Program-made: the position numbers and the translations under genes | Notes under the pieces: model-generated | Told to the model about the DNA's origin: nothing | The model's database searches: none | What the model saw: only the letters and a program-made list of their open reading frames with translations | Part shown: in pieces, positions 15,619 to 46,938 of the stretch | Numbering within the stretch: position 1 is the stretch's first letter | Layout of the letters: each line of letters begins with the position of its first letter | NCBI GenBank assembly: GCA_012843025.1 | Contig: DURT01000050.1 | Location: 2,128 to 66,127, forward strand | Reading direction: 5' to 3' | Length of the DNA: 64,000 bases | Source of the DNA: Tissierellia bacterium | GTDB taxonomy: Bacteria; Bacillota; Clostridia; Tissierellales; Sedimentibacteraceae

Positions 15619-15628
15619 AGGTATAGGG

Positions 15629-16399: not shown

Positions 16400-16400
16400 T

Positions 16401-20187: not shown

Positions 20188-20193
20188 GAAAGG

Positions 20194-31220: not shown

Positions 31221-32777
31221 TTATTCTAAAGCATTCTTTGCGGCATTTTTGCCTGCTACTCTTCCAAACAAAGTTGCTTGACCAAGTCCTGAGCCTGCGC
31301 AAGTATTTTCACCACTTAATTGAACATTACCTACAGCCTCACCAGCAACATACAAACCTGAAATTGGTTCATTATTAACATCTAAAACTTCGGCATCTAC
31401 ATTATGTTTAATCCCACCATATGTCATTATTGCGTAGGGGATTGTTTTTACAGCATACAACTTACCTTCCAATTTTTTTAGTTCTTTCGTACGTCCAAAA
31501 TCAGCGTCCTCTCCATTATCTACATAAGTATTGTATGTATCGATTGTTTTACGTAGTTGTTCTGGGTTAATACCAGCATTTTCAGCTAATTCTTCAGGTG
31601 TATTACCTTCAAAGACCAAATTTCCCTTTTCTAACTCTTCAAAAAACAATTTATTATTTTCATCTTTTGGTCCGTATGCAACATTTAAAATAGGATTATC
31701 ATCAGTAAGCATTTCTTCACTTATTATAAAGTATACTATATTTTCATCTGCATTTAAATATGTATCATTTATTGATTTCAAATCGTCAGTGAATTCATCA
31801 ATCATACGCTGACCATTAATATCTACCCATATTACACCAGGGTAATTTTTGTCTGCTAAGTGAGTAAGCCTTGTTGGATCATGAGGAAAAGCAGAATTAT
31901 AACTCCAGCAATAGTCCATACCAACAATCTTGGCATTTGCTTCTTTAGCTAATCTTAAACCATCTCAAGTAGTAGTATCTGGTCCATAAACTATATAATT
32001 ATCATATAACTTTGACATTTCTTCTTTATCAGCTGCATATCCTCCAGTAGCAATTATAGTGGATTTACCATTATACATAACACCATTTGCATCTTTTACG
32101 CCAGTTACTACACCATTATCATCTATTATTAAATTTGTTACCCTTGTATCTGTTAATAGAGTGATTTTACCCTCATCTATATATTGCTGAAAAGGAATAA
32201 GTAATGTTTCAACTAAAGAAAATCCACCACCGTCAACAGTATAGACACGCTTAACATTCAGTGGTTCGTACACTCCATAATGTGGTTCTGGAACAAATTC
32301 AACCCCTCTAGATATAAGCCATTCTATATTTTCACCTGAATGGTCAGCATAGAAACGTGCAATTTCTAAATCCAAGTTCTCAGAGCCACGAGCTAGCTTT
32401 TGAAGATCTTCATAGAATGTATCATAGCTATCTTCTATTCCGGCAGCTTCTTGAAGGCTTGTTACTGCTCCACTTATATATCCTGCTGCATATCTGGCAT
32501 TTCCACCTATTACATCAGATAGTTCAAGAATAATTACTTCAGCTCCATTTTCAACAGCTTCAATTGCTGCTGTTATACCAGCTAAGCCCGCACCAACTAT
32601 AACAACATCTGCTTTATTTTCAAGCACCTCTTTATTTTCAAGTACCTCATCGTTGATTTCTTCATTTATCTCTGTATTATTTTGAATGGTTTCTTCTGGT
32701 GTTTCTTGGGTTGTACACCCAACGATCATTGTAAGTAACATGAAAATACATAAAAAACTACTAATTAATCTTTTCAT
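31221..32777 (-). pseudogene. Exported lipoprotein FAD-dependent reductase (fumarate/urocanate-reductase-like flavoprotein) interrupted by one in-frame TGA
   Basis: Track ORFs 31965-32849 and 31221-31919 are in the same frame, separated only by the TGA at 31965-31967 and 15 sense codons (DGLRLAKEANAKIVG). The real start is the ATG at 32777, after GGAGG. Lipoprotein signal MKRLISSFLCIFMLLTMIVGC, FAD motif VVIVGAGLAGITAA, and C-terminal GLYVAGEA. Confidence 0.7.
32612..32647. repeat. 18-bp tandem duplication (2 copies, 1 mismatch) in the reductase linker
   Basis: CTTTATTTTCAAGCACCT / CTTTATTTTCAAGTACCT, encoding EVLENK-EVLENK on the minus strand. Confidence 0.85.
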
Positions 32778-32820
32778 AATTATGCCTCCAAAGTTAATTT
32801 TATTATAGGTATAGATATTG

Positions 32821-32849
32821 ATTATAATTATAAGTTTGTTAATTGTCAA
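32821..32849 (-). promoter_or_regulatory. Sigma-A promoter for the reductase gene
   Basis: The minus strand reads TTGACA, 17 nt, TATAAT (both hexamers perfect). Confidence 0.6.
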
Positions 32850-32963: not shown

Positions 32964-32992
32964 TTGAATCCTTCATTCCAATGAAGTATAAT
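32964..32992 (+). promoter_or_regulatory. Sigma-A promoter for the kinase/regulator genes
   Basis: TTGAAT, 17 nt, TATAAT. Confidence 0.5.
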
Positions 32993-33044: not shown

Positions 33045-35033
33045 ATGAAAAAAATAATAAATAAGTCAATTGCAGTAGTGTTAATTTTGGTTATATTGTT
33101 AGCCTGTTTACCCATGGTATCAGAAGGTGCAAGAACAAATATAAAAGTTGCAGTTAATTGTAACTTGCCTCCCTTTCAATTTTTGGACAAGGATGGAAAC
33201 ATCATAGGCTTACATATAGATATAATGAATGAAATTGCCAGTAAGGAAAATTTAATTATAGAATACTTAGCTTTCAATGAAACAAGTAAAGCTTTGGAAG
33301 CCCTTGAGAATGGTTTAGTTGACGTTGTTTTAGGCATAACATCCAAAAATGACGTAATAAAAGGCTTGAGAAAAACTAACGATATTTCTTCTGCCACACT
33401 TTGTATGCTGGTTGGTAATGAGAATGTCAATAAAATATTATATGAAGAAGAACAGCAAAAGTATTCGGTAGCTTTTGAACTTGGTACCATCAGCTTTTCA
33501 CAGCTTTCTCAGTTGAAGAATGCGAGAAATAATTTGGTTATGGGAAATCAAAAACAGCTTTATGAAGCTCTCGTAAAAAAACAAGTGGAAGCTGTTATAG
33601 GTGTAAAAGAAAGTATGTTGTACATGCTTGAAAATAATCCCGATTACAACTCTTATACCATAGTCCTTAACTACTTTTCCACAATAAACTACACAGCTTT
33701 GACACGTAACAATGATTTGGTGCTCCACAATTCACTTAATAGAGGAATCAGCAAATTACGAGCTAGCGATACATACGAACAACTGCTAGATAAATGGATT
33801 ATTAATACTGAACAGGAAGCAGCAGAAGAAATGAGAGCGAAGATGCTATCTTATATAGCTGCCTTCTTTATAATTGCCCTTATTGTTATCAGTATTATCA
33901 GTTACACGAATTATCAATTAAAGAAAGTTGTTGCAGAAAAAACAAAAGAAATAAGCAAAAGAGTTCAACAATTAGAAACGGAGAGCAACCTGCGGGAAAG
34001 ATTAATTGAGTTTTCACCGGCTGGCATAATGTTGTTGAAAAAAGACGGTTCTGTGCTGATGATGAACTCTATTATGCGTAGTTTAACAGGGATAGACAGT
34101 ATAAAAAATAAAAAAGAACTAAATATTTATGATTTAAAAATAGTAGGCAATATTTATAAACAAGTTAGTTGTAATAACAATACTATTGAAAGACCTGTAA
34201 TTATTAAGTACAACAATGATTCTGAAAATTTAATTTTTCGTTGTTATTGTCAGAGTATTAATGATGAAAACGACATGGTTTTAATGGTTGAAGATATTAC
34301 TTTGGAAGAAAAAGAAAAACATGAAATTTTTGAGCTTAGAAAAAACAAGGCACTTAATCGTATAATTGCAGGTATGGCTCATGAAATAAAAAATCCTCTC
34401 ATGTCTATAAATACATTTGCGTCTCTCATTCGAAAACAAGGTAAAGACAAAGAATTTCAGGAAATGTTCGCCCAGCATGTTCCCAAGGAAGTAGATCGGA
34501 TAAACAGGTTGATTAATATGTTGATAAATTACAGCCGACCAGTACGAAGTAATAAAGAACGGGTATCTGTAAGGGAGCTTATAAATGATTCCATTTATTT
34601 TGCACAACTATCTGCTAGAAAAATTAAACACATAAATATTAAAAGCAACGAGAACATAGAGGCATATATTTTTGTGAACAGGGACCAAATTAAACAAGCT
34701 TTCATAAATTTAATTTTGAACAGCATCCAATCCATAGAGGAAAAAATTCAAAATATGGGAGGAAGTATAGTTGATGATTTAGTTATTAGTGTCTCCAGCT
34801 ACCGTAGTGATAACAAAGTATATTTAGAAGTTTATGACGAGGGTTGCGGTATAGATGAAAGTGATATTGAAAAATGTTTAGATCCTTTTTTTACTACTAA
34901 AGCAACAGGTTTGGGCATGGGATTATCACTGACTAAGCAATTTGTGGAGGATAATTTCGGAAAAATTGAAATTGAAAGCCGTAAAAACCAATATACCATC
35001 ATAAGAATGATATTTGAGGAGGATAAGGATTGA
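33045..35033 (+). CDS. Sensor histidine kinase with an extracytoplasmic solute-binding (SBP_bac_3-like) domain
   Basis: 662 aa. N-terminal anchor; a ~230-aa domain resembling polar amino-acid/opine binding proteins (PPFQFLDKDGNIIGLHIDIMNEIA); a second TM (LSYIAAFFIIALIVISIISY); a PAS-like region; H-box AGMAHEIKNPL; and ATPase boxes LILNSIQS, DEGCGI and GLGMGLSL. Confidence 0.85.
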   Translation: MKKIINKSIAVVLILVILLACLPMVSEGARTNIKVAVNCNLPPFQFLDKDGNIIGLHIDIMNEIASKENLIIEYLAFNETSKALEALENGLVDVVLGITSKNDVIKGLRKTNDISSATLCMLVGNENVNKILYEEEQQKYSVAFELGTISFSQLSQLKNARNNLVMGNQKQLYEALVKKQVEAVIGVKESMLYMLENNPDYNSYTIVLNYFSTINYTALTRNNDLVLHNSLNRGISKLRASDTYEQLLDKWIINTEQEAAEEMRAKMLSYIAAFFIIALIVISIISYTNYQLKKVVAEKTKEISKRVQQLETESNLRERLIEFSPAGIMLLKKDGSVLMMNSIMRSLTGIDSIKNKKELNIYDLKIVGNIYKQVSCNNNTIERPVIIKYNNDSENLIFRCYCQSINDENDMVLMVEDITLEEKEKHEIFELRKNKALNRIIAGMAHEIKNPLMSINTFASLIRKQGKDKEFQEMFAQHVPKEVDRINRLINMLINYSRPVRSNKERVSVRELINDSIYFAQLSARKIKHINIKSNENIEAYIFVNRDQIKQAFINLILNSIQSIEEKIQNMGGSIVDDLVISVSSYRSDNKVYLEVYDEGCGIDESDIEKCLDPFFTTKATGLGMGLSLTKQFVEDNFGKIEIESRKNQYTIIRMIFEEDKD

Positions 35034-36406
35034 AACCATATATATTAATAATAGACGATGAACCCAGTATATGTGCTTCATTGAATCTAGCATTAAAAGA
35101 TGATTACAATGTTGTTGCTTTCAACAGTTCCCAGCCTGCATTGGAATTATTGGAAAAACAAACTTTTTCCGTTGTCCTTTTAGATTTAAAAATAGGGGCA
35201 GAAAATGGATTAAATGTACTTAACAAAATTAAAGAAATAGACCCCAGCGTGGTTGTAATAATGATGACTGCTTATGGCAGCATTGGTACTTCTGTGGAAG
35301 CTATGAAAAACGGTGCCTTCAACTATCTGACAAAACCCTTGGATATTGATGAGTTAATGGTTCATGTTAAACAAGCAGTAGAGTTTTATAAATTAAATGA
35401 ACAAGTTAGTTTTCTGTCAGAGGAACTTCGAAATAAGGGATATCATGAAGAGATTATTGGTAATAGCGAACCTATGCAGCATATTTACATGCTTATTGAT
35501 AAGCTAAAAGACATAGATACTAATGTTCTAATAACAGGGGAGAGTGGTACTGGCAAAGAATTAGTGGCAAAGGCTATTCACGAATCAGGAAATCGCAGGA
35601 ATGAAAGATACATAGTAGTAAATTGTGCTGCAATACCAGAAAACCTCTTAGAATTAGAATTATTCGGATGTAAAAAAGGAGCCTTTACAGGTGCCATAAA
35701 CGATAGTAAAGGTAAATTTGAATTAGCGGATAAAGGAACAATATTCTTGGATGAAATAGGGGACATGCCTCTGTCCTTGCAGAGTAAGTTGCTTCGAGTT
35801 TTACAAAATAAAGAATTTACCCCCATAGGTGGTTCTAATGTAATCCGTACAGACGTTCGAATTATTGCTGCTACTAACAGGGATCTTCCACAATTAATTG
35901 AAGAGGGTCATTTCAGGGAAGACTTATATTATAGGATTAAAGTTATGGAAATTAAGATGCCACCTCTTCGGGAACGTGTAAGCGACATACCGGATTTATG
36001 TAATTATTTTATTAATATGCTATCTAAAAACTTAAAAAAACCACTTAAAGGTATTACAGAAGAAGCTAAGGAAGTGTTGATAAATTACAATTATCCGGGT
36101 AATGTGCGCCAATTGGCCAATATTTTAGAGTATGCAGCAATAATAAATTCAACAGGAGTAATTGGTGTTGAGGATCTTCTTGATGAAATTGTGTTTCCAC
36201 GGAATGCCAAGAATAAGGAAACAACCTTTGAAAGGGTAATTGATGAGTATCTTTCAACCAACAGTATTAAAGAAATAGAAAAACGCGCCGTAAAAGCTAC
36301 TTTAATTAAGAACGAGGGACGAAGGGATTTGACGGCTAAGGATTTAGGCATAAGTAAACGTGGACTGCTCAATAAAATTAATCAATATGGTTTAAAAAAT
36401 CTGTAG
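35030..36406 (+). CDS. NtrC-family sigma-54-dependent response regulator (REC-AAA+-HTH)
   Basis: 458 aa. TTG start overlapping the kinase stop (TTGA). REC with VVLLDLKIG; Walker A GESGTGKE; sigma-54 contact loop GAFTGA; C-terminal Fis-type HTH TAKDLGISKRGLLNKI. Confidence 0.92.
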   Translation: MKPYILIIDDEPSICASLNLALKDDYNVVAFNSSQPALELLEKQTFSVVLLDLKIGAENGLNVLNKIKEIDPSVVVIMMTAYGSIGTSVEAMKNGAFNYLTKPLDIDELMVHVKQAVEFYKLNEQVSFLSEELRNKGYHEEIIGNSEPMQHIYMLIDKLKDIDTNVLITGESGTGKELVAKAIHESGNRRNERYIVVNCAAIPENLLELELFGCKKGAFTGAINDSKGKFELADKGTIFLDEIGDMPLSLQSKLLRVLQNKEFTPIGGSNVIRTDVRIIAATNRDLPQLIEEGHFREDLYYRIKVMEIKMPPLRERVSDIPDLCNYFINMLSKNLKKPLKGITEEAKEVLINYNYPGNVRQLANILEYAAIINSTGVIGVEDLLDEIVFPRNAKNKETTFERVIDEYLSTNSIKEIEKRAVKATLIKNEGRRDLTAKDLGISKRGLLNKINQYGLKNL

Positions 36407-36422
36407 AGGCAATATTTTCACC

Positions 36423-36447
36423 TTGGGACGCAAAATTTGCGCTCCAA
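36423..36447. promoter_or_regulatory. Near-perfect palindrome, candidate activator (UAS) site
   Basis: TTGGGACGCAAA-A-TTTGCGCTCCAA. The inner 6-bp arms CGCAAA/TTTGCG are perfect. It is centred about 60 bp upstream of the -24 element. Confidence 0.4.
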
Positions 36448-36493
36448 GATTATTTTGGGTATAGATTTTACTGGATTTTAGCTACTTATAGCT

Positions 36494-36509
36494 TGGCACA
36501 ATTATTGCA
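36494..36509 (+). promoter_or_regulatory. Sigma-54 (-24/-12) promoter
   Basis: TGGCAC-AATTA-TTGCA is an exact match to the TGGCAC-N5-TTGCW consensus. It lies 50 nt upstream of the SBP start, directly after an EBP gene. No other match to this pattern was seen on either strand of the window. Confidence 0.85.
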
Positions 36510-36558
36510 TTTACTATATTGGATACAGGGTTATGCCCTAAAAAATAAGGAGGAGTAT

Positions 36559-38130
36559 ATGAAAAAGGTTACTAAATTTTTGATTTGTTTATTGTTGATT
36601 TCATTACTTATTACCAGATGTTCCGGTGGGGACAAAGACGTTCCATCAGATCCTAAAACGGAAACACCTTCTGGTACTTCCGGAGAACCTAAGTACAAAA
36701 AAGAAATCATAATAGCCATTGCAGATGAGTTTACAACTATTGACCCTATGGAAACTACTGCAGAATCAAATCAAATAGTACAAGATTGTACTCATGATTT
36801 ATTGACAGATACAAATTTATTAACAATGCAAAACGAGGGAGAACTAGTTGACTCCTGGGAAATGATAGAACCGGATCACTGGAGATTTAAACTTAAAGAG
36901 AATGTAAGATTTCATGACGGTACTATTTTAGACGTTGATGACGTAATCTTTACTTTTGAAAGAGGTAAAGATAAATCAACAACATCTGCCTATATTTCTA
37001 AAATTAAAGATTTTATAAAAGTAGATGACCTTACATTTGAAGTTAAACTACATAATGGAGATGTAGACTTCAACTATGTGCTTGCTGCTAACTCTTTGGC
37101 AATTTTATCAAAGGAAGCATTTGAAACTATGCCAGAGGAAGAGGCTGTAAAAATTGGTACAGGTCCCTGGAAATTTGAAGAATTTGTTCCTGGTGATTAT
37201 GTTTCTTTAGTAAGATTTGAAGAATGTACACTTTATGATGTTCCAAATACTGAACGTTTAGTGTTCCGAATGATTCCAGAGGCATCTTCAAGAATGATAG
37301 CATTAGAAAATGGTGAAGTGGATGCTATTATGTCACCAAGTCCAACAGACTATAATCGTCTGTCAGAAAGCAGCAACCTTAAACTTATAACTGAAACAGG
37401 ACGTGGACAACACTTTATAGGTTTCAACTGTTCAAATACTAATTCAATAGTATCTAACCCTGAGTTTAGAAAGGCTATAGCCCATGCAATCAACAAAGAA
37501 GAAATGGTTATAGCTGCATGGGATGGATATGCACAGGTTTCTACAAGCATTATGTGCCGTGATATGGAGTACTATGCAGATATAGAAGGTATTCCATATG
37601 ATCCTGATAAGGCAAAAGAAATGTTGAAAGAGCTCAATGCAGAAGGTATAACTCTTAATTTAATTACTTCTGATGCCAGCCACCGTGTTAAAATGGCTGA
37701 GAACTTCCAAGCTCAAATGGCTAGGTACGGCATAACAGTAAATGTTGAATTTATGCAGCAGGCAGCATTAATTGAGCGATTACAAAATGATAAAAATACT
37801 GAAGTCTTCGTATTGTCCTGGACTCCTGGTATGAATGCGGACTACATGTATAGAAATCCGATTCACTCACAAGGAGGACGAAGCTTTTATGCAAACTTAA
37901 ACAATTCTGAAATAGATGCTCTTATAGATGCAGCAGCAGCAGAAGTTGATACAACAAAGAGAGCACAAATGTACGAAGAATTACAAGTACGCTTAACTAC
38001 AGAACTTGTTCCATGGGTTCCTATTGCCCAAGCTACTTTGACAATGGGTGCAGATAAAGATGTAACCGGTTTATTATTACATCCCGGTCTTGTTCATCAA
38101 TTTAAAACTGCAGAGAAAATTATTAATTAA
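36559..38130 (+). CDS. ABC transporter substrate-binding lipoprotein, family 5 (Opp/Dpp/Nik type)
   Basis: The start was moved from 36493 (which overlaps the promoter) to the ATG at 36559, after AAGGAGG. Signal/lipobox-like LLISLLITRCSG. The size (523 aa) and sequence style are those of peptide/opine/nickel SBPs. Confidence 0.85.
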   Translation: MKKVTKFLICLLLISLLITRCSGGDKDVPSDPKTETPSGTSGEPKYKKEIIIAIADEFTTIDPMETTAESNQIVQDCTHDLLTDTNLLTMQNEGELVDSWEMIEPDHWRFKLKENVRFHDGTILDVDDVIFTFERGKDKSTTSAYISKIKDFIKVDDLTFEVKLHNGDVDFNYVLAANSLAILSKEAFETMPEEEAVKIGTGPWKFEEFVPGDYVSLVRFEECTLYDVPNTERLVFRMIPEASSRMIALENGEVDAIMSPSPTDYNRLSESSNLKLITETGRGQHFIGFNCSNTNSIVSNPEFRKAIAHAINKEEMVIAAWDGYAQVSTSIMCRDMEYYADIEGIPYDPDKAKEMLKELNAEGITLNLITSDASHRVKMAENFQAQMARYGITVNVEFMQQAALIERLQNDKNTEVFVLSWTPGMNADYMYRNPIHSQGGRSFYANLNNSEIDALIDAAAAEVDTTKRAQMYEELQVRLTTELVPWVPIAQATLTMGADKDVTGLLLHPGLVHQFKTAEKIIN

Positions 38131-38216
38131 TAGCTTAGCTAAGTTCATGCATTCCTATGATTCTCCCCCTAAATCATGGGAATGCATTCTAAATTCATTT
38201 AATAGGAGGAGACATT

Positions 38217-39146
38217 ATGATTCGCTATATTATTAAGCGGTTTTTGATGATGATACCGGTTCTTTTGGCTGTTTCCTTTGTGGTATATTTTCTCATGGAC
38301 TTGGCTCCAGGAGATATAGTTGGGATGATGGCTCCGCCGGATGCCACAGAAGTTGAAATAGAGATGATGCGTAAGGAAATGGGTTTGGACGGAACATTGC
38401 CGGAGCGGTATTTTCGATATATGAAGAATTTACTGAAAGGTGATTTGGGTATGTCCTTGTCCATGAAACGCCCCGTTATAGATATTTTCTTTGAACGTTT
38501 CCCTGCTACCCTAAAGTTAGCCTTTGGTAGCATTATTGTTGCCATGATTATTTCCATTCCTTTAGGTATAGCAGCAGCTACCCATCACAGATCCTGGCTG
38601 GATGGAGCAAGTATGGTTACTGCAATGTTAGGACTTTCAATGCCCAGCTTTTGGCTTGGTCTATTATTAATTATTTTATTTTCACTTAAGTTAGGATGGT
38701 TGCCTTCAGGAGGAAGTGATGGATTCCTTTCAATCATACTTCCAGCAATAACCTTAGGTGCAGCTCAGGCAGGAAATTTAACCAGAATAACCCGTTCTTC
38801 CATGTTGGAAGTTATTCGCCAGGACTATCTGCGAACTGCCAGGGCAAAGGGTGTAAGTGAGAAAAAGGTAATTTACAAACATGCTCTTAAAAATGCTTTA
38901 ATACCGATAATAACTATTTTTGGTTCAACATTAGGGAACGCTCTTGGTGGAGCTGTTGCAATTGAAACTGTGTTTTCCTGGCCTGGTGTAGGAAGATTAA
39001 CTGTGTCCGCCATTAACAGCAGGGATATGACATTAGCAACTGGATGCATTATTATGTTTACAATATTTTTTACTCTTACAATGCTTCTTGTTGATATTGC
39101 ATATGCTTATGTAGATCCCCGTATTAAAGCCCAATATTCAAAGTGA
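38217..39146 (+). CDS. ABC transporter permease (OppB/DppB-like)
   Basis: 309 aa, 6 TM, EAA region DYLRTARAKGVSEKKVIYKHALKNA. Confidence 0.9.
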   Translation: MIRYIIKRFLMMIPVLLAVSFVVYFLMDLAPGDIVGMMAPPDATEVEIEMMRKEMGLDGTLPERYFRYMKNLLKGDLGMSLSMKRPVIDIFFERFPATLKLAFGSIIVAMIISIPLGIAAATHHRSWLDGASMVTAMLGLSMPSFWLGLLLIILFSLKLGWLPSGGSDGFLSIILPAITLGAAQAGNLTRITRSSMLEVIRQDYLRTARAKGVSEKKVIYKHALKNALIPIITIFGSTLGNALGGAVAIETVFSWPGVGRLTVSAINSRDMTLATGCIIMFTIFFTLTMLLVDIAYAYVDPRIKAQYSK

Positions 39147-39155
39147 GGTGTTAAT

Positions 39156-40049
39156 ATGGTTAAAGAAAAATATACTGTAGGAGAATTAAAGGCTTTTAAA
39201 AAACGTAGTATTGCCAGCGAAGTGTGGAGGAATTATAAAAAAAGTCCCAGCGCTATGGCAGGTCTCATAGTAGTATGTCTTTTAATACTGGTGACAATAG
39301 CTGCCCAGGTTATATATGATTATGATACTGATATAGTTCAGCAGGACATTATGAATCGTTTTAAGGAACCTTCCTTGGAACATCCCTTTGGAACGGACCA
39401 CTATGGACGTGATGTAATGGTAAGGGTACTTTATGGAGCAAAGTATTCACTGTCTGTAGGTATTGTTTCCGTTGCCATATCATGTTTCCTTGGAAGTAGT
39501 TTAGGTTTAATTGCAGGTTACTACGGAGGCCTGGTAGAGAATATAATTTTGCGTACCTGTGAGATTTTTATGGGTATTCCGTCTATTTTACTTGGTATCG
39601 CAATTATGTCCGCTTTTGGACAAAGCTTGCTGGTTTTAATGTTCGCCATTGGACTTGTATATGTTCCAATGTTTGCTCGTACGGCAAGAGCAGCAGTATT
39701 GCCTGTAAGGGATCAGGAATACATTGAAGCTGCCAAAGTATCGGGAGTTAGCGATTTACGTATTATATTTACCCATGTTTTACCTAATGCCATGTCCCCT
39801 ATAATAGTGCAGGTTACTATGGGAGTGGCAAATGGAATTCTAACAGCATCAAGCTTGAGCTTCTTAGGCCTTGGAGTACCAGTACCAGCTCCTGAATGGG
39901 GAGCAATGCTATCCAGCGGTAGGGAATATATACGTGATTATAGTTATTTAACTTTCTTCCCGGGACTTGCAATTATGATTACGGTTCTTGCATTCAATCT
40001 CATGGGAGATGGTTTGAGAGATGCGTTAGATCCTAAATTGAAACAATAG
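39156..40049 (+). CDS. ABC transporter permease (OppC/DppC-like)
   Basis: 297 aa, EAA region EYIEAAKVSGVSDLRIIFTHVLPNA. Confidence 0.9.
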   Translation: MVKEKYTVGELKAFKKRSIASEVWRNYKKSPSAMAGLIVVCLLILVTIAAQVIYDYDTDIVQQDIMNRFKEPSLEHPFGTDHYGRDVMVRVLYGAKYSLSVGIVSVAISCFLGSSLGLIAGYYGGLVENIILRTCEIFMGIPSILLGIAIMSAFGQSLLVLMFAIGLVYVPMFARTARAAVLPVRDQEYIEAAKVSGVSDLRIIFTHVLPNAMSPIIVQVTMGVANGILTASSLSFLGLGVPVPAPEWGAMLSSGREYIRDYSYLTFFPGLAIMITVLAFNLMGDGLRDALDPKLKQ

Positions 40050-40061
40050 GTGGTGCTGAAT

Positions 40062-41057
40062 ATGAAAAAAGACTTGGTTCTTAATGTTAAAAACCTAGTA
40101 GTACGTTATGAAACAGAAGATGGTATAGTTAAAGCAGTTAATGGACTGAATTTAGAAATTGAAAGAGGAAAGGCAATAGGATTAGTAGGAGAAACGGGAG
40201 CAGGAAAGACAACTACTGCTTTATCACTCTTGAGACTGATTCCAGAACCTCCAGGGGTGGAAGAGTGCGGTCTAATGGAATTAGACGGCTTAGATATGTT
40301 GAGTTTAACTCCTAAGGAATTAGAAAAGGTACGGGGAAAGGATATTTCAATGATATTCCAGGACCCTATGACTGCTCTTAATCCAGTTTTTACTGTAGGT
40401 GACCAGATAGCAGAAAGTATACATCTCCATGAAGATGTTTCCTATACAGAAGCTCAGAGACGTGCAATAGATATGCTTGAATTGGTTGGAATACCCGGTG
40501 AGCGAGCAAGTGATTATCCCCACCAATTCTCAGGGGGTATGAAACAACGTGTTGTAATTGCAATTGCCCTTGCATGTCGACCTAAGCTTTTAATAGCTGA
40601 TGAACCTACTACTGCCTTAGATGTTACAATTCAGGCACAGGTTCTTGAATTAATGAAAAACTTACGTAAAAAGTATCAAACTTCTTTAATAATGATTACC
40701 CATGACTTAGGTATTGTAGCAGAAATATGTGATGAAGTTGCAGTTATGTATGCAGGTAATATTGTAGAAAAGGGTACATTAGAAGATGTTTTTAACAGAA
40801 CTAAACACCCTTATACAGAAGGTTTGTTTAATTCTATACCTAATATTTACGACAGAAAAGCAATGCTTACACCCATTAAAGGTTTAATGCCAGATCCTAC
40901 AAATCTTCCGGAAGGATGTCCTTTCCATCCCCGTTGTCCATATATGGATGAGGATTGTAAAAAGCCACAAACAGATAGGGCAATTTCAGATACCCATTTC
41001 GTAAGATGCAGTGCATACGATAGACCAGGATTTCACATCAACAGGAAGGAGAAGTAA
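40062..41057 (+). CDS. ABC transporter ATP-binding protein (OppD/DppD-like)
   Basis: Walker [10 protein letters not shown], signature FSGGMKQRV, Walker [13 protein letters not shown], and a C-terminal Cys-rich oligopeptide-transporter domain [14 protein letters not shown]. The ATG at 40062 is preferred over the GTG at 40050. Confidence 0.9.
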
Positions 41058-41058
41058 T

Positions 41059-42012
41059 ATGTCGGATACAATTTTAGAAATAAAAAATTTAAAAAAATAC
41101 TTTAAAACTAAACGTGGTATGTTGCATGCTGTTGATGGAATCAATTTAACTGTTGAACGTGGAAAGACTCTAGGACTAGTTGGGGAATCCGGTTGTGGAA
41201 AATCTACCGTGGGACGAACTATATTGCGTCTTATAGAGCCTACGGAAGGAGAAATCTTATTTGAAGGAAAGGATATTACAAAGCTTAATAGAAGGCAATT
41301 GAAATTAGTTCGTAAGGATATGCAGCTGATTTTCCAAGACCCCTATTCATCCTTAGACCCTCGTAAAACGGTGAGTCAAATTATAAGCGAACCCATAATT
41401 GCCAATAAAATTTTGAAATCTAGCCAAGATATTCATAACAGAGTGGCAGAACTTATGTCTACTGTAGGTCTTGCCGCCCGTTTGTTTAATACTTATCCTC
41501 ACGAGTTGGACGGAGGACGTCGTCAGCGTATAGGTATAGCCCGGGCATTGGCAATGGAACCTAAATTTATTGTTTGTGATGAACCTGTTTCTGCATTAGA
41601 TGTGTCCATACAGGCTCAAATATTGAACTTATTAAAGGAATTACAAGCTGAATTTAAATTATCTTATATTTTTATTACCCATGACCTTTCCGTAGTTAAT
41701 CATTTTTCTGATGATATTGCTGTTATGTACTTGGGTAAAATTGTAGAAAAAGCGCCGGCGGAAGAATTATTTGCTAATCCATTGCATCCATATACGCAAG
41801 CCTTGTTGTCTGCAATTCCAATACCGGAATTAGGAGTAAAAAAGGAAAGAATACTAATTAAAGGTGAAATTACTTCTCCAATAAATCCTCCTAGTGAATG
41901 CAGATTTAAGAAAAGATGCAACTATGCTCACGATAAGTGCGATGTACATCCGGAACTTGTAGAAGTTTCCACCGGTCACTTTGTAGCTTGTCACTTAGTT
42001 GGAAAACAATAA
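41059..42012 (+). CDS. ABC transporter ATP-binding protein (OppF/DppF-like)
   Basis: Start at the ATG at 41059, just after the upstream TAA. Walker A GESGCGKST, signature LDGGRRQRI, Walker B FIVCDEPVSALD, C-terminal CRFKKRCNYAHDKC. Confidence 0.9.
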   Translation: MSDTILEIKNLKKYFKTKRGMLHAVDGINLTVERGKTLGLVGESGCGKSTVGRTILRLIEPTEGEILFEGKDITKLNRRQLKLVRKDMQLIFQDPYSSLDPRKTVSQIISEPIIANKILKSSQDIHNRVAELMSTVGLAARLFNTYPHELDGGRRQRIGIARALAMEPKFIVCDEPVSALDVSIQAQILNLLKELQAEFKLSYIFITHDLSVVNHFSDDIAVMYLGKIVEKAPAEELFANPLHPYTQALLSAIPIPELGVKKERILIKGEITSPINPPSECRFKKRCNYAHDKCDVHPELVEVSTGHFVACHLVGKQ

Positions 42013-42041
42013 AAATTTATATATATTATTGGAGGAATAAA

Positions 42042-43211
42042 ATGATATTTGGTGTACTAAAGGATATTAAAGAAGGCGAATATCGCGTTATATGCACACC
42101 TACAGAGGTTGCCAGCATCATAAGTGCTGGGCACAGGGTATTAGTCCAAAAAGATTGTGGTAAAGCAGCAGGATTTCCAAATGAAGCTTATGAAAAGGCA
42201 GGAGCAGAAGTTGTGGAAAGTGCTGAGGAAATATTTGCTCGCTGTGACATGGTTGCTAAAGTAAAGGAATTTGAAGAAAGTGAATATGATCTAATTCGGG
42301 AAAATCAAATTATTTTAGGCTGTATCCATCCTGCAGGTAATAGGGAAGAAGTAGATGCAATTTTAAAAAGCAAGTGTATTGCTTTTACTGCTGAGGATTC
42401 TCATCGATATGGTTCCCCAAATTGTGAAGCTGCTGGAAAGCAAGGAGCACTTTTTGGTCTTGAGTCAATGCTTACAATTAACGGTGGTAAAGGTAAGTAT
42501 GTAGGTGGCTTTGCAGGTGCACCTGGAATGAATGTTTTAATTTTAGGAGGAGGCCTTGTGGGACAAGGAGCCTTGTCAGTACTTTATGCTTTAGGTGCAA
42601 ATGTGACAGTAATGGATATTAATGTTGGAGTTCTTAGAACTTTAAGTGATCGTTACAACGGTAAAATAAATACCATGTTCTGTACCAAGGAAGCTATTGC
42701 ATCAGTCTTGCCCCAAACAGATATGGTTATAAATGCTGTTAAATGGCCAAAACACAGGAAGGATTTCCTAATAGATAAGGAAATGTTAAAACTTATGGAA
42801 CCAGGATCTGTATTGGTAGATATAAGCAATGATAATCCTGGCGCAATTGAATCATCCTATGAAACTCATCATGATAATCCTCGTTACGTAGTAAACGGAG
42901 TAGTTCATTACTGTGTTAGCAACATACCGGGAGCCGTAGCTCACTCTACTTCTATAGCCTATGCAGCAGTAATGCTACCTACAATTTTAAGTATTTTAAA
43001 TGATGGAGTTGTGGAAGCCTGTGTGAAGGACGGATATATTAGAAGAAGTTTAACAGCATACAAAGGATATCTTACACACGAGGAAACAAGCGGCATACAG
43101 AATAGACCTTGGATTCCGCCGGAAGTTATCTTAGGTATAAAAGACAGGGAATTAGATTATGCACCTCCTGCTACAACTACAAGGTCTACAAATTACTATG
43201 TACTTGAATAG
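42042..43211 (+). CDS. Alanine dehydrogenase/PNT-family NAD(P)-dependent enzyme (divergent; saccharopine/carboxyethyl-ornithine-type chemistry possible)
   Basis: Start at the ATG at 42042, after GGAGGA. The N-terminus MIFGVLKDIKEGEYRVICTP...AGHRVLVQKDCG...VAKVKE...GCIHPA parallels AlaDH (MIIGVPKEIK..ENRV, KVKEP, LH). Rossmann motif LILGGGLVGQGA. There is a ~40-aa C-terminal extension. Confidence 0.7.
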   Translation: MIFGVLKDIKEGEYRVICTPTEVASIISAGHRVLVQKDCGKAAGFPNEAYEKAGAEVVESAEEIFARCDMVAKVKEFEESEYDLIRENQIILGCIHPAGNREEVDAILKSKCIAFTAEDSHRYGSPNCEAAGKQGALFGLESMLTINGGKGKYVGGFAGAPGMNVLILGGGLVGQGALSVLYALGANVTVMDINVGVLRTLSDRYNGKINTMFCTKEAIASVLPQTDMVINAVKWPKHRKDFLIDKEMLKLMEPGSVLVDISNDNPGAIESSYETHHDNPRYVVNGVVHYCVSNIPGAVAHSTSIAYAAVMLPTILSILNDGVVEACVKDGYIRRSLTAYKGYLTHEETSGIQNRPWIPPEVILGIKDRELDYAPPATTTRSTNYYVLE

Positions 43212-43273
43212 TTCTCATACTTTCTATTTGCTATAGGATATTACCTATTATTAATGAGAAAGCAGGAAATAAG

Positions 43274-44599
43274 ATGGTTTTTGAAACTGATTACAAACTT
43301 GAAGAATTTATACTTAATACTGTATGGGAAGATTTGCCTGAAAAAGTACAGGAACGGGCTCAGGTATGCTTTATAGATTTAATGGGCGCCTTATTGATCG
43401 GTAGCCGCAGTCAGCAGTTTGATGCTGGAATAAAATTAGCAAAATCTATCTTTGGAAAAGGCAGTGTAGCAGTAATAGGTTCAAAGGAAGGTTTCAGTTT
43501 CATGGGTGCAGCAACTGCCATGGGCCATTCCTCCAATGCATATGATATTGATGATGGACATAATATTATAAGGGCTCATCCTGGTACATCCTTTATAGGA
43601 GGAATATTAGCTGCAGCCTATGAAAAAGGAATAAGTTACAAGGAACTCCTTACAACATTAGTGGTATCCTACGAAACAACAATTCGTATGGGTAGGGCTA
43701 TTATGGACTACTATAATTTTGCTCATAGTAGCGGCACCTTCGGTGCCGTAGGTACAGCTGCCGGTGTGGGCCGAATATATGGATTCACCAAGGAACAAAT
43801 GAACAATGTATTATCTGTCTCAGAATTTAATGCACCCCTGGTTCCAGGAATACGCTCAGTAGAATATCCTTCAATGAATAAGGACGGGGTTCCCTTTGGT
43901 GTTATGATAGGTGCTATTGCGGTAATGGAAACTTTATGTGGCTTTATCGGCAATAAAAATCTTTTGGAATCAGATAAGTACAGACATTATCTTAATGATT
44001 TAAATGATAATTATGAAATTATGAATTTATATTTTAAACCCTACACTTGTTGCAGATGGGCTCATCCTGCTATTGATTCATGTCTTGAAATTATGAGAAA
44101 CAATGGTATAAGTTACAAGGACATCAAGGAGGTCACCATTCATACATTTAAAGGTGCTTCAATGCTTTCAAAGATAATTCCTAAAACAGAGGATGAAGCT
44201 CAATACAATATATCTTATCCAGTAGCTGCTGCTATAGTAACAGGCGATTTTGGATTAAATCAACTTACCCGGGAAGCTTTTGAAAATCAGGATATACTTG
44301 TAATGATGGAGAAACTTAAGTTTAAAGTGGATCCTGAAATTGATGGAAAGTTTCCTCAAAGGCGTATTTGCAGAGCAGAAATAATTACTTACGATGGTCA
44401 AAGGTTTATTTCCTCGGAATGTGAACCTAAAGGGGAAGCTCATGAAAATATAGGTATGGACTGGATAGTTGAAAAGTTTAAGCGTATTACTGCTCCTGTA
44501 ATAAAACAGGATTTTCAAGATTATATTGTTGATATAATGAAAAATCAATTGGATATTCCAGTTGTAAAAATAATTGATGAGGTAAACAACAATTTATAG
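43274..44599 (+). CDS. MmgE/PrpD-family protein (2-methylcitrate dehydratase-like fold, function unknown)
   Basis: 441 aa. The length and segments such as AATAMGHSSNAYDIDDGH, GTFGAVGTAAGVGR and FKPYTCCRWAHPAIDS are characteristic of the MmgE/PrpD family. Confidence 0.75.
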   Translation: MVFETDYKLEEFILNTVWEDLPEKVQERAQVCFIDLMGALLIGSRSQQFDAGIKLAKSIFGKGSVAVIGSKEGFSFMGAATAMGHSSNAYDIDDGHNIIRAHPGTSFIGGILAAAYEKGISYKELLTTLVVSYETTIRMGRAIMDYYNFAHSSGTFGAVGTAAGVGRIYGFTKEQMNNVLSVSEFNAPLVPGIRSVEYPSMNKDGVPFGVMIGAIAVMETLCGFIGNKNLLESDKYRHYLNDLNDNYEIMNLYFKPYTCCRWAHPAIDSCLEIMRNNGISYKDIKEVTIHTFKGASMLSKIIPKTEDEAQYNISYPVAAAIVTGDFGLNQLTREAFENQDILVMMEKLKFKVDPEIDGKFPQRRICRAEIITYDGQRFISSECEPKGEAHENIGMDWIVEKFKRITAPVIKQDFQDYIVDIMKNQLDIPVVKIIDEVNNNL

Positions 44600-44630: not shown

Positions 44631-44664
44631 AAAAAAACAACCCGCCCTTGGTGGGTTGTTTAAT
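44631..44664. terminator. Bidirectional terminator between the PrpD-like gene and helD
   Basis: AAAAAAACAACCCGCC-CTT-GGTGGGTTGTTT, a 12-bp stem with an A tract and a T tract. Confidence 0.85.
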
Positions 44665-44706: not shown

Positions 44707-46938
44707 TTATTTTAAAAAGGGTGAAATTTTTCCCGTATAAAACAATGATAATCTGTGAAGGGCTCTGGTACATGCAATATACAGAAGGTTTCTATCGTAT
44801 TCGGAGCTGTAATTTTCCTCATTTGTTTCATATACAATAACTCCGTCAAATTCAAGACCTTTTGCCAAGTACACCGGTATTATTAAAACTCCCTCCAATT
44901 CACTTTCATAATCTAAATAATCAATTAACTTTATTTTAGTTTTTTTGCTAAGCTCAAAATATAACTGGGCTGCTTCCTTCCTGTTTTTACATATAACTGC
45001 TATGGAGCTGAATTCTAAGGATTTGTATTTTTCAATATATTCAACAATTCTATCAAGAATATTTTTATCAGTACATTTAATAACCTTAGGTTCTTCCTCA
45101 TTTCTTTTGAAAAATTCCATAGGAAGTTGGGTATTTAATAACTTTGAGCTGAATTTACTTATTTCATAGGAGCTTCTGTAGCTTTTATTAAGAAAAACTT
45201 TTTCACTTTTTTCGAAATTAAATATGGATATAATAGTATCATATAATGATATATTGCTGTTCTTTTCCACAGACTGATTTATATCTCCTACAATAGTAAA
45301 TTTGGCTTCTCTGAACATATCCTTCAGAATGCAATAGTGTATGGGATAATAATCCTGGGCTTCATCTACTACAACCTGCTTAATGTTGCTGAACAAGTCA
45401 CAGCCCTCTGCTCTAATTTTTAAATACATCAGGCATATTCCGTCAGCGTAAGGGATATTAAATTGATCTTTCAAAGCATTATTTGTATAATCAATAATTT
45501 CATCTATATTATCCGGCAGTTTGAGACCCTTAGATATTTTTTTGAACATGTCAATATCAGAGAATAATTTTTTATATAACTTAAAACAGTCAAATTCAGT
45601 AAATTCACGTAATTTCTCGACAAATTTCTTCGTTTCTTTTGCCGCCAAAACCCTTACAAAGGCTTCCGACTCATATTCATAGTTATTTAATTTATTAACT
45701 GCTATTTCAATTTTACTTCGTCGGTCTTTTCTCATATCCCGAACTTTATTCATAATTCTGCTCTCAATAATTTTTAGCTTCTTAGCCATAGGCATATTGA
45801 GCTTTGAGCTTAACAGCAATGCTTTTAACAGTTGGCGATTTTCAATAATTTTACCGTTGAAATATACATCGGTAAAGGGTATTAACTTTCGCTGAAAATA
45901 ATTAATATACCGATCCATTATTTCTTTGAAGATCAGGGATCCTTTAAATTCTACATAGGATCTTAAAAATCCCCTTTCCTTTTCAGTTTTTGCCACTATT
46001 ATATTTTCAAAGTTCTCACTTTTAGTTTTCATAGATAGCTGGTTATTAAATAACCTTTGAAATATGTTTTCGAAAGTATATTTATTAATATTATCTTCAC
46101 CTAACTCAGGGAGAACATTGGATATGTATTTAGAAAAAAGTGGATTCGGTGAAATAACTATAACATTATTAGACTTAAGATTTAAATTGGTACCCTGGTA
46201 CATGAGGAAAGCCACTCTGTGCAGTGCCACGGATGATTTTCCGCTGCCTGCAGCTCCCTGAACCACCAACAAATCATTATATAGGTCCCTTATAATTAAA
46301 TCTTGCTGCATCTGTATAGTTTCAACAATTGTCTTCATTTTTGGAGTCATATTCTTAGACAAAGCTTCTATAAGTATTTCGTCAAGAATATTTATGTTAC
46401 TGTCAAAGAAATATTCAATTTTACCTTTCTTGATTTTAAATTGTCTTTTAAGAGAAACGTATCCTTTTATTACTCCGGCAGGAGCTTTGTATTGAACAGG
46501 TCCTACCTCGTTTCGGTAGTACAGGCTTGAAATGGGCGCACGCCAATCATAGACTTTTATTTCATGGGTATCTTCATCCATTAAATTAAAAAGTCCTATA
46601 TATATTTTTTCTTTTTCATCGTAACCTTCTTCTGTGAAATCAATTCTTGCAAAATACGGGCTATCCATCATTTTTTCATACTTGGAAATACGTTTTGCCA
46701 TTTCCGTATAGGTGAAAGTTTGAGCCTGTAAAGCGCTTAAATATTGGTTTAAATCTGTAAGTTTATCGAAATCTGCAGATGAATGGGTTGTATTTTCCCA
46801 CATTTCTCTTCGAGACTCAATTATATCGGATTTTTGATTCTCCAAACTATATGTTTCCACTTCAAGTTTGTATTGCAATAATCTTAAGATTTCCTCCAAA
46901 TATTTAGCTTCTTCAGCATATTTGTCATTATACTCCAT
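44707..46938 (-). CDS. helD: UvrD-like helicase HelD (RNA polymerase recycling ATPase)
   Basis: 743 aa. N-terminal coiled-coil, conserved YFARIDF and VYDWRAPISSLYY, Walker A VVQGAAGSGKSSVALHRVAFLMY, C-terminal LYIACTRALHRL. Confidence 0.85.
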   Translation of the reverse strand: MEYNDKYAEEAKYLEEILRLLQYKLEVETYSLENQKSDIIESRREMWENTTHSSADFDKLTDLNQYLSALQAQTFTYTEMAKRISKYEKMMDSPYFARIDFTEEGYDEKEKIYIGLFNLMDEDTHEIKVYDWRAPISSLYYRNEVGPVQYKAPAGVIKGYVSLKRQFKIKKGKIEYFFDSNINILDEILIEALSKNMTPKMKTIVETIQMQQDLIIRDLYNDLLVVQGAAGSGKSSVALHRVAFLMYQGTNLNLKSNNVIVISPNPLFSKYISNVLPELGEDNINKYTFENIFQRLFNNQLSMKTKSENFENIIVAKTEKERGFLRSYVEFKGSLIFKEIMDRYINYFQRKLIPFTDVYFNGKIIENRQLLKALLLSSKLNMPMAKKLKIIESRIMNKVRDMRKDRRSKIEIAVNKLNNYEYESEAFVRVLAAKETKKFVEKLREFTEFDCFKLYKKLFSDIDMFKKISKGLKLPDNIDEIIDYTNNALKDQFNIPYADGICLMYLKIRAEGCDLFSNIKQVVVDEAQDYYPIHYCILKDMFREAKFTIVGDINQSVEKNSNISLYDTIISIFNFEKSEKVFLNKSYRSSYEISKFSSKLLNTQLPMEFFKRNEEEPKVIKCTDKNILDRIVEYIEKYKSLEFSSIAVICKNRKEAAQLYFELSKKTKIKLIDYLDYESELEGVLIIPVYLAKGLEFDGVIVYETNEENYSSEYDRNLLYIACTRALHRLSLFYTGKISPFLK

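Follow-up and report, generated by a model that had tools for sequence, protein, structure and literature searches.

Two enzyme genes that recur together across Clostridia form an uncharacterized, widely distributed cassette drawn from two distinct and mis-annotated subfamilies. We describe this pair at positions 33045-44599 of a 64,000-nucleotide stretch of DNA from a Tissierellia bacterium (contig DURT01000050.1; the whole stretch is referred to below as the window), where nine plus-strand open reading frames (ORFs) encode a sensor kinase, a sigma-54 activator, an ATP-binding cassette (ABC) importer, a dehydrogenase derived from alanine dehydrogenase (AlaDH) and a protein of the MmgE/PrpD fold. 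The control circuit and the importer are further members of well-known kinds. With a probability of about 0.4, we read the locus as a substrate-induced operon for uptake and catabolism of a dicarboxylic amino acid of a D- or gamma-linked peptide, in which an epimerase would act first and an L-specific NAD-dependent dehydrogenase second. What the pair itself uses up is probably an acidic amino acid of an unusual kind, set free from peptides like those of the cell wall. The nine genes, with the Pfam domains that identify them, are as follows.

33045-35033, plus strand: sensor histidine kinase, 662 amino acids (aa); SBP_bac_3, HisKA and HATPase_c
35030-36406, plus strand: sigma-54 response regulator of NtrC/AtoC type, 458 aa; Response_reg, Sigma54_activat and HTH_8
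36559-38130, plus strand: family-5 substrate-binding protein of Opp/Dpp/Gsi type; SBP_bac_5 (2e-73)
38217-39146, plus strand: ABC permease of OppB/GsiC/NikB type; BPD_transp_1 (2e-47) and BPD_transp_1_N
39156-40049, plus strand: ABC permease of OppC/GsiD type; BPD_transp_1 (5e-36) and OppC_N
40062-41057, plus strand: ABC ATPase of OppD type; ABC_tran and oligo_HPY
41059-42012, plus strand: ABC ATPase of OppF/DppF type, 317 aa; ABC_tran and oligo_HPY
42042-43211, plus strand: AlaDH-derived dehydrogenase, predicted to be NAD(P)-dependent; AlaDh_PNT_N/C
43274-44599, plus strand: MmgE/PrpD-fold enzyme of the iminodisuccinate-epimerase/YxeQ-like branch; MmgE_PrpD_N/C

Recurrence of the enzyme pair in Clostridia

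Relatives of the PrpD-like protein turned up in 149 species-representative genomes when a profile of its subfamily was searched, and 80 loci were inspected by calling and clustering their ORFs. All 80 come from metagenome-assembled genomes (MAGs) of Clostridia/Bacillota recovered from rumen, gut and anaerobic reactors. In approximately 60 of the 80, an AlaDH-like gene is no more than a few genes away from the PrpD-like one, usually directly upstream. Therefore, the two enzymes, which an earlier note made from the sequence of the window alone had called not normally found together, constitute a recurrent cassette across Clostridia. That note had also taken the nine co-oriented genes for a self-contained module, which held up, and had suggested a search for the enzyme genes behind sigma-54 promoters in other Clostridia: the full nine-gene arrangement recurs in the same order in a Tissierellia MAG (locus L008) and in Sedimentibacter (L001 and L002), and AlaDH-like and PrpD-like genes stand behind sigma-54 elements in more than 12 related loci. 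In L009-L011, the same arrangement includes an extra pyridoxal phosphate (PLP) enzyme encoded between the two enzyme genes. We found no characterized pathway of such composition, as the same note had supposed, and a literature search returned no paper linking an AlaDH paralogue with an MmgE/PrpD protein.

The partners of the pair vary between cassettes. Alternative transport partners are a YitT-family membrane protein with a divergent LysR gene (approximately 13 loci) and Opp-like systems of two types, and the regulators include two-component enhancer-binding proteins, a one-component GAF-type sigma-54 activator, LysR, AraC and GntR. Four loci (L015, L045, L048 and L051) share the order importer, NlpC/P60 peptidase, PrpD-like gene, activator, sigma-54 promoter and AlaDH-like gene, with an activator of the one-component type that has a weak GAF match. 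A Sedimentibacter MAG (JAXGIL010000001.1, 161-197 kb; L010 and L066) carries two tandem cassettes on one contig, one with a two-component activator, a binding protein of the window type and an ornithine-racemase-like (Orr-like) enzyme, and the other with a second type of binding protein, an MslH-like PGA_cap protein and two NlpC/P60 genes. In L089 (JGI 3300040998, positions 8001-17173), a GntR regulator and three AlaDH-family genes are arranged around an Opp-like importer; one is an 81% identical orthologue of the dehydrogenase, another is a paralogue (57% identity) that shares its pocket signature, and the third has a near-canonical AlaDH pocket. Three dehydrogenases around one importer would be expected if several amino acids of a single peptide were each deaminated.

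Accessory enzymes encoded on the same strand recur beside the pair and are predicted to be cytosolic, as they have no signal peptides. NlpC/P60 cysteine peptidases of approximately 500 aa with an intact DCS...GH...H triad are found in 10 loci, the Orr-like PLP enzyme in 11 (314 bits against a cut-off of 480), and CPG2/DapE-like M20 hydrolases in 6; some related loci contain an aminoacylase-type M20 protein (TIGR01891, above cut-off) or PGA_cap proteins related (216 bits) to MslH, a proven peptide C-terminal epimerase (PMC8179263). A PDB search with a 508-aa NlpC/P60 neighbor gave no match, and its assignment stands at the Pfam level only. Dus, TilS, HPRT, FtsH, Gpr, SpoIIP, PrmA, HydEFG, GH43 and others were considered as partners and dropped as housekeeping genes or single occurrences. 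No further catabolic enzyme is conserved downstream among the neighbors of the inspected loci, which suggests that the product of the pair is a central metabolite, that is, a 2-oxo acid. A solitary Orr-like PLP gene is also present in the window at 59357-60445 (397 bits against the cut-off of 480; 42% identical to the Orr-like genes of the cassettes), and was set aside as a candidate for a missing accessory gene, as it lies between tadA and xth (exodeoxyribonuclease III) with no operon link.

Judged by family membership, the accessory enzymes suggest peptides that contain D-amino acids or gamma linkages, and not opines. They appear to comprise amidases for unusual amide bonds (gamma-D-glutamyl type, C-terminal Glu and N-acyl) together with racemases or epimerases of three unrelated kinds, a set whose apparent logic is that of peptidoglycan-peptide recycling. 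Such recycling uses an Opp/Dpp importer followed by a gamma-D-Glu endopeptidase and an L-Ala-D/L-Glu epimerase; in the ykf genes of B. subtilis, YkfC is an NlpC/P60 enzyme and YkfB the L-Ala-D/L-Glu epimerase. Similar to B. subtilis dppABCDE-ykfABCD and to E. coli MppA/Opp with MpaA, YcjG and PepD, the related loci of the cassette combine an Opp/Dpp-type importer with cytosolic enzymes for gamma-D-glutamyl bonds and D-stereochemistry. However, the epimerase candidates here have the PrpD and PGA_cap/MslH folds rather than belonging to the enolase superfamily, the set includes an AlaDH-derived dehydrogenase in addition, a sigma-54 two-component system is in control, and the window operon encodes no peptidases.

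The AlaDH-derived dehydrogenase and the PrpD-like protein

Both enzymes belong to the families to which the earlier note had assigned them, AlaDH/PNT and MmgE/PrpD, but by curated cut-offs neither is the enzyme that its name suggests. The dehydrogenase matches PF05222 (117.8 bits) and PF01262 (175.5 bits), both above the gathering score of the AlaDh_PNT superfamily, whereas it reaches 271.8 bits with the AlaDH equivalog model TIGR00518, which has a cut-off of 391.85. It is 31-38% identical to crystallized AlaDHs and is itself unusually conserved across Clostridial families, with 80-92% identity between Tissierellia and Oscillospiraceae. We aligned 60 subfamily members with four crystallized AlaDHs and use M. 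tuberculosis numbering for the comparison. The catalytic and carboxylate-binding residues R15, K75, H96, E118 and D270 are all conserved. In contrast, the residues that we take to form the alanine methyl pocket of AlaDH (F/Y94, Y117, L130, M133 and M301) are replaced throughout: Y117A, T119D, Q121H, P128R, L130G, M133N, S134C and M301I are invariant changes in the family, and F/Y94 becomes Cys. In subfamily positions the residues are C94, Ala117, Asp119, His121, Arg122, Gly124, Asn127, Cys128 and Ile295. A loop is shortened by 6 aa and a C-terminal extension of approximately 25 aa is conserved. The replacements and the loop deletion indicate a pocket that is larger and polar or charged. From these residues, the enzyme should still be able to oxidize L-2-amino acids, or 2-substituted amines, that have an adjacent carboxylate, but not alanine. 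Compared with Ald, therefore, the two-domain fold and the Arg15/Lys75/His96/Asp270 set are kept, whereas the methyl pocket is replaced, an extra C-terminal segment is conserved and the score falls below the cut-off. The AlphaFold model of the dehydrogenase was poor (predicted local distance difference test, pLDDT, 61.7, with relatives 80-92% identical) and was used for neither fold nor pocket analysis.

The other member of the AlaDh_PNT superfamily that we compared is the L-lysine-forming saccharopine dehydrogenase Lys1, whose sequence was verified against PDB 2Q99 beforehand. The dehydrogenase matches AlaDH at 3e-73 and Lys1 at E 1.6e-6 (hhalign probability 90%), and judged by these profiles its relationship to saccharopine dehydrogenase is very distant and at the superfamily level only. 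The substrate loops of the two are of equal length, and Arg122 falls beside Arg130/131 of saccharopine dehydrogenase in a profile alignment of low local confidence. Pfam detects no octopine-dehydrogenase-type domain in the protein, and Sacchrp_dh_NADP scores 20.3 bits, under its cut-off.

The PrpD-like protein is a member of the MmgE/PrpD superfamily (PF03972, 128.7 bits; PF19305, 106.1 bits), and its scores of 20.4 and 21.4 bits with the 2-methylcitrate dehydratase models lie far under their cut-offs of 575 (NF006943) and 950 (NF042438). None of the methylcitrate-cycle genes prpC, prpB and acnD/prpF is found nearby in the window or in the 80 related loci. In a search of the PDB, the family profile matched YxeQ ('B. 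subtilis IRG1') at 1.7e-23, iminodisuccinate (IDS) epimerase at 6e-21, cis-aconitate decarboxylase (CAD) at 6e-10 and PrpD (1SZQ) at 1e-6. Foldseek comparison of an AlphaFold2 model (pLDDT 80.9) confirms the PrpD-like fold but ranks CAD, IDS epimerase, YxeQ and PrpD about equally (template modeling scores of 0.6-0.66), and so does not discriminate between functions; identity to IDS epimerase and YxeQ in these alignments is approximately 19%. H85, D91, D93, D94, H96, H102, H151, K203, K255 and C260 are invariant among 21 members of the subfamily, and by sequence alignment only, the motif residues coincide with the HxxxDxDDxH...HP, H-x-TGT and K motifs of YxeQ and IDS epimerase. A 2025 study argued that the conserved His, Asp and Lys residues of all known family members hold a C4 1,4-dicarboxylate and stabilize an enolate; of the five characterized activities in the family, two are epimerizations, of iminodisuccinate and methylsuccinate, and the chemistry also includes decarboxylation and dehydration of dicarboxylates (PMC12290011). 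YxeQ is without known function (PMC9706529). We predict that the PrpD-like protein is an epimerase or isomerase acting on a dicarboxylate.

The nearest solved relatives are thus the Agrobacterium IDS epimerase and YxeQ, which is encoded with the M20 protein YxeP in the B. subtilis yxe operon. In both systems, the PrpD-fold protein is paired with a stereospecific bond-cleaving enzyme and an amino-acid-type ABC importer, an arrangement similar to that of the window. Some related loci extend the parallel with yxe, the operon for S-(2-succino)cysteine, in that an M20 amidohydrolase adjoins the pair. The partner in our cassette differs, being a predicted NAD-dependent dehydrogenase and not a class-I lyase or a flavin monooxygenase.

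Importer, predicted sigma-54 control and surroundings of the locus

The architecture proposed in the earlier note was recovered gene by gene: searches with SBP_bac_3, HisKA/HATPase_c, Sigma54_activat, SBP_bac_5, BPD_transp_1, ABC_tran/oligo_HPY, AlaDh_PNT_N/C and MmgE_PrpD found every domain that it had named, including those of the five-gene family-5 importer. This importer has the composition of Opp/Dpp (PepT-family) systems, in which a family-5 binding protein is joined by two BPD_transp_1 permeases and by two ATPases that carry oligo_HPY at the C-terminus. An N-terminal signal sequence is present in the binding protein, in which residue 21 is a Cys. Its top NCBIfam model is GsiB (6e-45, under cut-off), and its top PDB matches are 5U4O, YliB/GsiB and DppA; a literature search found no published ligand for 5U4O, the first of these. 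Gsi models are the best or near-best for the binding protein and the permeases, yet no subunit qualifies as a member (GsiB 153.9 against 594, GsiC 306.9 against 463, GsiD 282.2 against 484 and GsiA approximately 300 against 1077). Where related operons encode NlpC/P60 peptidases in addition, their binding proteins share 57-72% identity with that of the window, which therefore probably carries the same class of substrate.

The kinase consists of an N-terminal signal or transmembrane segment, an extracytoplasmic SBP_bac_3 domain at aa 33-252 (9e-17), a second transmembrane segment and an AtoS-like PAS/HisKA/HATPase core (HisKA 1e-12, HATPase_c 2e-15), which bears out the proposal of a sensor with a part resembling family-3 solute-binding proteins. 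Over aa 301-659 the match to the NCBIfam model AtoS is 3e-58, far under cut-off. The PDB proteins nearest to the sensor domain are amino-acid binding proteins of the Gln/Arg/Glu type. In family-3 amino-acid binding proteins, a T-x-x-x-x-R motif holds the alpha-carboxylate of the ligand. Judged by eye, this motif seems to be absent from the sensor domain (33126-33830; GITSKNDVIKG), and the ligand of the kinase may therefore not be a standard free alpha-amino acid. The regulator is, as had been described, a REC-AAA+-HTH activator (Response_reg 2e-25; Sigma54_activat, PF00158, 2e-71, 239 bits; HTH_8 2e-5) with GESGTGKE (Walker A) and an intact GAFTGA in its translation; its top NCBIfam models, AtoC and NtrC, are both under cut-off. 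The stop of the kinase gene and the start of the regulator gene overlap by 4 nucleotides (nt), and because the two genes adjoin in this way the pair is not an orphan in the usual sense, as it had been called. The elements around the genes are the following.

32964-32992, plus strand: candidate promoter of the sigma-70 type ahead of the kinase/regulator pair, TTGAAT-17-TATAAT (10 of 12 positions agree with the consensus)
36421-36448, no strand assigned: inverted repeat with core palindrome CGCAAAATTTGCG (36429-36441), a putative enhancer or upstream activating sequence (core conservation, uniqueness)
36494-36509, plus strand: sigma-54 promoter TGGCACAATTATTGCA, -24 TGGCAC and -12 TTGCA (consensus match)
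44635-44661, no strand assigned: bidirectional terminator hairpin (RNA fold, z = -4.1)

The promoter TGGCACAATTATTGCA is located 3' of the activator gene and approximately 50 nt 5' of the start of the binding-protein gene, and is the sole match to TGGCAY-N5-TTGCW in 64 kb, where 0.10 would be expected by chance. TGGCA[CT]-N5-TTGC[AT] elements are found 5' of the binding-protein gene in L001/2 and L008-L011, and directly 5' of the AlaDH-like gene in L005-7, L014, L015, L018, L045/48/51 and L077. The exact sigma-54 promoter of the earlier note is thus a single match kept across related loci, which argues that control by sigma-54 goes back to the ancestor of the cassette and that the match did not arise by chance. 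RpoN was not among the ORFs scanned, which were only part of those in the 64-kb window. Approximately 53 nt 5' of the -24 element, the inverted repeat at 36421-36448 is unique in the window (chance expectation 0.01). Its core sequence is kept in all six loci of the two-component type, with diverging flanks, and L005 has two copies before its sigma-54 promoter; loci with GAF-type activators carry another palindrome (AAAACGTTGGAATTTCAACGTTTT) in place of the CGCA-W4-TTGCG motif. We read the repeat as a putative enhancer for the activator. A role as terminator of the regulator gene is disfavored because the core sequence, and not merely its pairing, is kept across loci, although a dual role is possible. 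The sigma-70-type match at 32964-32992 is well placed but weak, as such matches occur at chance frequency in AT-rich DNA.

Two-component control of this kind is a minority arrangement: in a survey of Clostridiales sigma-54 regulons, response regulators make up approximately 10% of enhancer-binding proteins, and that reconstruction makes no mention of either enzyme or of an oligopeptide transporter (PMC6615313). Similar to AtoSC, NtrBC and ZraSR, the locus has an AtoS-like kinase core, an AtoC/NtrC-like REC-AAA+(GAFTGA) regulator with a Fis-type HTH, and a palindromic putative enhancer upstream of a -24/-12 promoter. Unlike these systems, the hits in the window are all under equivalog cut-offs, and the sensor is a family-3 solute-binding domain fused to the kinase.

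From the binding-protein gene to the PrpD-like gene, the intergenic gaps are 86, 9, approximately 12, 1, 29 and 62 nt, in keeping with the small gaps that had been reported. Several gene starts were corrected. The binding-protein gene begins at ATG 36559 with the ribosome-binding site AAGGAGGAG, and not at 36493, an ORF start that falls within the promoter; the AlaDH-like gene begins at 42042. For the OppD-type ATPase, the ORF opens with GTG at 40050 and ATG 40062 is most likely the start, giving the length of the L001 orthologue; for the OppF/DppF-type ATPase, the ORF opens at 41011 and the start is most likely ATG 41059, giving 317 aa as in L001. Between the binding-protein and first permease genes lies a perfect 16-bp hairpin with no U-tract (38147-38187, plus strand; -23.8 kcal/mol, z = -2.6). 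It is likely an mRNA-stability or attenuation element and may raise the stability of the binding-protein mRNA relative to that of the membrane components; intercistronic hairpins of this kind are common in ABC operons. The PrpD-like gene shares the hairpin at 44635-44661 with a UvrD-like helicase gene that converges on it (44707-46938, minus strand), and the stronger U-tract is on the minus strand. This hairpin is, as the earlier note had claimed, the first terminator-like hairpin after the promoter, but not the first strong stem, which is the 16-bp hairpin. Terminator-like matches within the operon are no more frequent than expected by chance.

Proteins identical or nearly identical to those of the locus are encoded in a Tissierellia MAG that includes a 1.54-Mb contig (HHZ02447.1 is among its proteins). 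The flanks of the module are unrelated to it, with tRNA-Ala, tRNA-Thr and a split FAD-binding gene upstream and the helicase, an HTH-cupin regulator and serS downstream. The FAD_binding_2/flavocytochrome-c-like gene (31221-32849, minus strand) is divergent from the kinase gene and is divided into ORFs of 294 aa (N-terminal) and 232 aa (C-terminal), probably by a frameshift or as a pseudogene; it was rejected as a member of the module because it is split in two and is not conserved beside the module elsewhere. Positions 2064-14097 are the replication-origin region, with gyrB (2064-3974), dnaN (5394-6509) and dnaA (6741-8066) on the minus strand near the origin, mnmE and mnmG on the plus strand, and a switch in the sign of the GC skew near 6-8 kb. 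At 18397-22017, a NuoF-like flavoprotein gene adjoins a gene for a group A6 NADH-dependent [FeFe] hydrogenase (902 bits, above cut-off). Cell-wall enzymes, namely a DacA/PBP3-like D-Ala-D-Ala carboxypeptidase and an M23 peptidoglycan metallopeptidase, are encoded at 53206-54369 and 61581-63191, with no operon link shown.

Proposed pathway, alternatives and implications

In the pathway that we propose, the kinase would detect an extracellular amino-acid-like ligand and phosphorylate the activator, which would bind the palindrome and open the sigma-54 promoter, so that seven genes, for the Gsi/Dpp/Opp-type importer and two cytosolic enzymes, would be expressed. The compound that the importer carries would be small and peptide-like, and its dicarboxylic amino acid would be beyond the reach of ordinary peptidases and dehydrogenases, whether by D-configuration, gamma or beta linkage, or N-substitution. 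The likeliest source would be a bacterial cell-wall fragment or a compound of the poly-gamma-glutamate type; D-Glu and D-Asp would be the simplest candidates and meso-diaminopimelate (DAP) an alternative. By the enolate chemistry of its family, and as in IDS epimerase, the PrpD-fold enzyme would invert the alpha-carbon to the L-form, which the dehydrogenase would deaminate oxidatively to 2-oxoglutarate or oxaloacetate, NH4+ and NAD(P)H, pulling the epimerization forward. In other genomes the pair would be fed by operon-encoded cytosolic peptidases and peptide epimerases, whereas in the genome of the window these steps, if needed, would be encoded elsewhere. The dicarboxylate site of the PrpD fold, the Arg, His and Asn in the dehydrogenase pocket and the lack of a conserved downstream enzyme all point to a dicarboxylic amino acid as the intermediate shared by the two enzymes. 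A bolder form of the proposal, which we regard as doubtful, is that the PrpD-fold protein would be the first cofactor-independent epimerase of amino acids (or of peptide-bound ones) in the MmgE/PrpD family, and would form with the AlaDH-derived dehydrogenase, then specific for a dicarboxylic or diamino-dicarboxylic amino acid, a new two-step, oxygen-independent, sigma-54-controlled route by which uncultured Clostridia, abundant in gut, rumen and digester, would bring the cell-wall D-amino acids D-Glu, D-Asp or meso-DAP into central metabolism.

Several points weigh against a D- or gamma-linked peptide pathway. Approximately 20 of the 80 loci have a PrpD-like gene with no dehydrogenase nearby, and L089 has the dehydrogenase with no PrpD-like gene in view. 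Both enzyme subfamilies are known from sequence alone, and the order of the two reactions is one that we infer. The window operon lacks a peptidase, a racemase and a peptide epimerase; where such accessory proteins occur, NlpC/P60 and M20 are broad families, and the proteins match no solved structure or fall under equivalog cut-offs. We know of no PrpD-family enzyme that racemizes a free amino acid. A purely acidic side chain is a poor fit to the invariant Asp119, which would go better with a distal zwitterion, as in DAP, with a distal ammonium group or with a secondary amine. Finally, an ordinary glutamate racemase and dehydrogenase are usual in these organisms, and the need for a dedicated pair is not obvious.

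The earlier note had proposed that opine-like compounds or aminopolycarboxylates are imported, for which N-(carboxyalkyl), N-(1,2-dicarboxyethyl) and S-/N-succinated amino acids would be examples; this is a less likely but live alternative. Here, the PrpD-fold enzyme would epimerize a substituted succinate or aspartate center, as IDS epimerase does, and the AlaDH-family enzyme would split the secondary amine oxidatively, in the manner of saccharopine dehydrogenase, into a 2-oxo acid and an amino acid. This agrees with IDS epimerase and YxeQ of the S-(2-succino)cysteine operon as nearest solved relatives, each beside a stereospecific cleavage enzyme, and with the aminoacylase-type M20 protein beside the pair in some related loci, as in yxeP-yxeQ. 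The loop length shared with saccharopine dehydrogenase and the placement of Arg122 beside its Arg130/131, at low local confidence, point the same way, Asp119 and the C-terminal extension could together hold a second amino-acid moiety, and family-5 binding proteins include the opine binders AgaA and AccA, which are among the weaker PDB hits. However, the dehydrogenase resembles AlaDH (3e-73) far more than it does saccharopine dehydrogenase (1.6e-6) and has no octopine-dehydrogenase-type domain, and no abundant natural N-succino or opine substrate is known from rumen, gut or digester. The comparative context gives opine import no direct support, and the recurrent NlpC/P60 peptidases, Orr-like racemases and MslH-like peptide epimerases would be left unexplained. 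The Agrobacterium opine operons (occ/noc and aga/moc) do resemble the arrangement, proposed only in our case, of a substrate-induced ABC importer co-transcribed with enzymes that split secondary amines, but there the enzymes are FAD opine oxidases and the regulators are of the LysR type; octopine-dehydrogenase and opine-oxidase domains are lacking in the window operon, and the hosts of the present cassette are strict anaerobes from gut and digesters.

We consider it improbable that the dehydrogenase acts first, on the L-center of an imported diamino- or dicarboxylic amino acid such as meso-DAP, with the PrpD-fold enzyme then isomerizing, decarboxylating (as CAD does) or dehydrating a 2-oxo or cyclic imino-dicarboxylate to a metabolite that can be used. 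A distal zwitterion, of which DAP provides an example, would be well placed in a pocket with Asp119 and Arg122/His121, members of the PrpD family can decarboxylate and dehydrate dicarboxylates, and NlpC/P60 peptidases, which typically free DAP or Lys from gamma-D-Glu, recur as neighbors together with DapE-like M20 hydrolases and the Orn/Lys-type racemase. Nevertheless, tetrahydrodipicolinate-type products are not central catabolites and, with no conserved downstream enzymes, would be stranded; known substrates of the PrpD family have a C4 1,4-dicarboxylate backbone that DAP derivatives lack, and no decarboxylase is among the nearest relatives of the PrpD-like protein, which have epimerase activity or no known function. 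The most ordinary explanation, which public annotations as 'alanine dehydrogenase' and '2-methylcitrate dehydratase PrpD' and the best scores of the transporter subunits with Gsi/Opp/Nik models would favor, is that a di- or oligopeptide (or glutathione or nickel) importer is co-transcribed by happenstance with a genuine AlaDH and a genuine 2-methylcitrate dehydratase. This is very improbable, as both enzymes lie well under the curated equivalog cut-offs, the AlaDH methyl pocket (F/Y94, L130, M133 and M301) is replaced throughout the subfamily, prpC, prpB and acnD/prpF are found near none of the loci, and the pair is tightly conserved across families while transporters change, which argues for a joint function.

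In guts, rumens and digesters, dead bacterial cell walls are a large source of D-amino acids and gamma-linked peptides. If a D- or gamma-linked peptide is indeed the substrate, the cassette would show by what route strict anaerobes, which have no D-amino-acid oxidases, exploit this source. Two large protein groups, wrongly annotated as 'alanine dehydrogenase' and '2-methylcitrate dehydratase' in relatives from 149 species genomes, would then gain their first function, the five reaction types characterized in the MmgE/PrpD family would be joined by one directed at amino acids, and light could be shed on the role of B. subtilis YxeQ. Even if the substrate proves to be opine-like or succinated, the dehydrogenase would represent a new specificity class derived from AlaDH, with possible use in biocatalysis.

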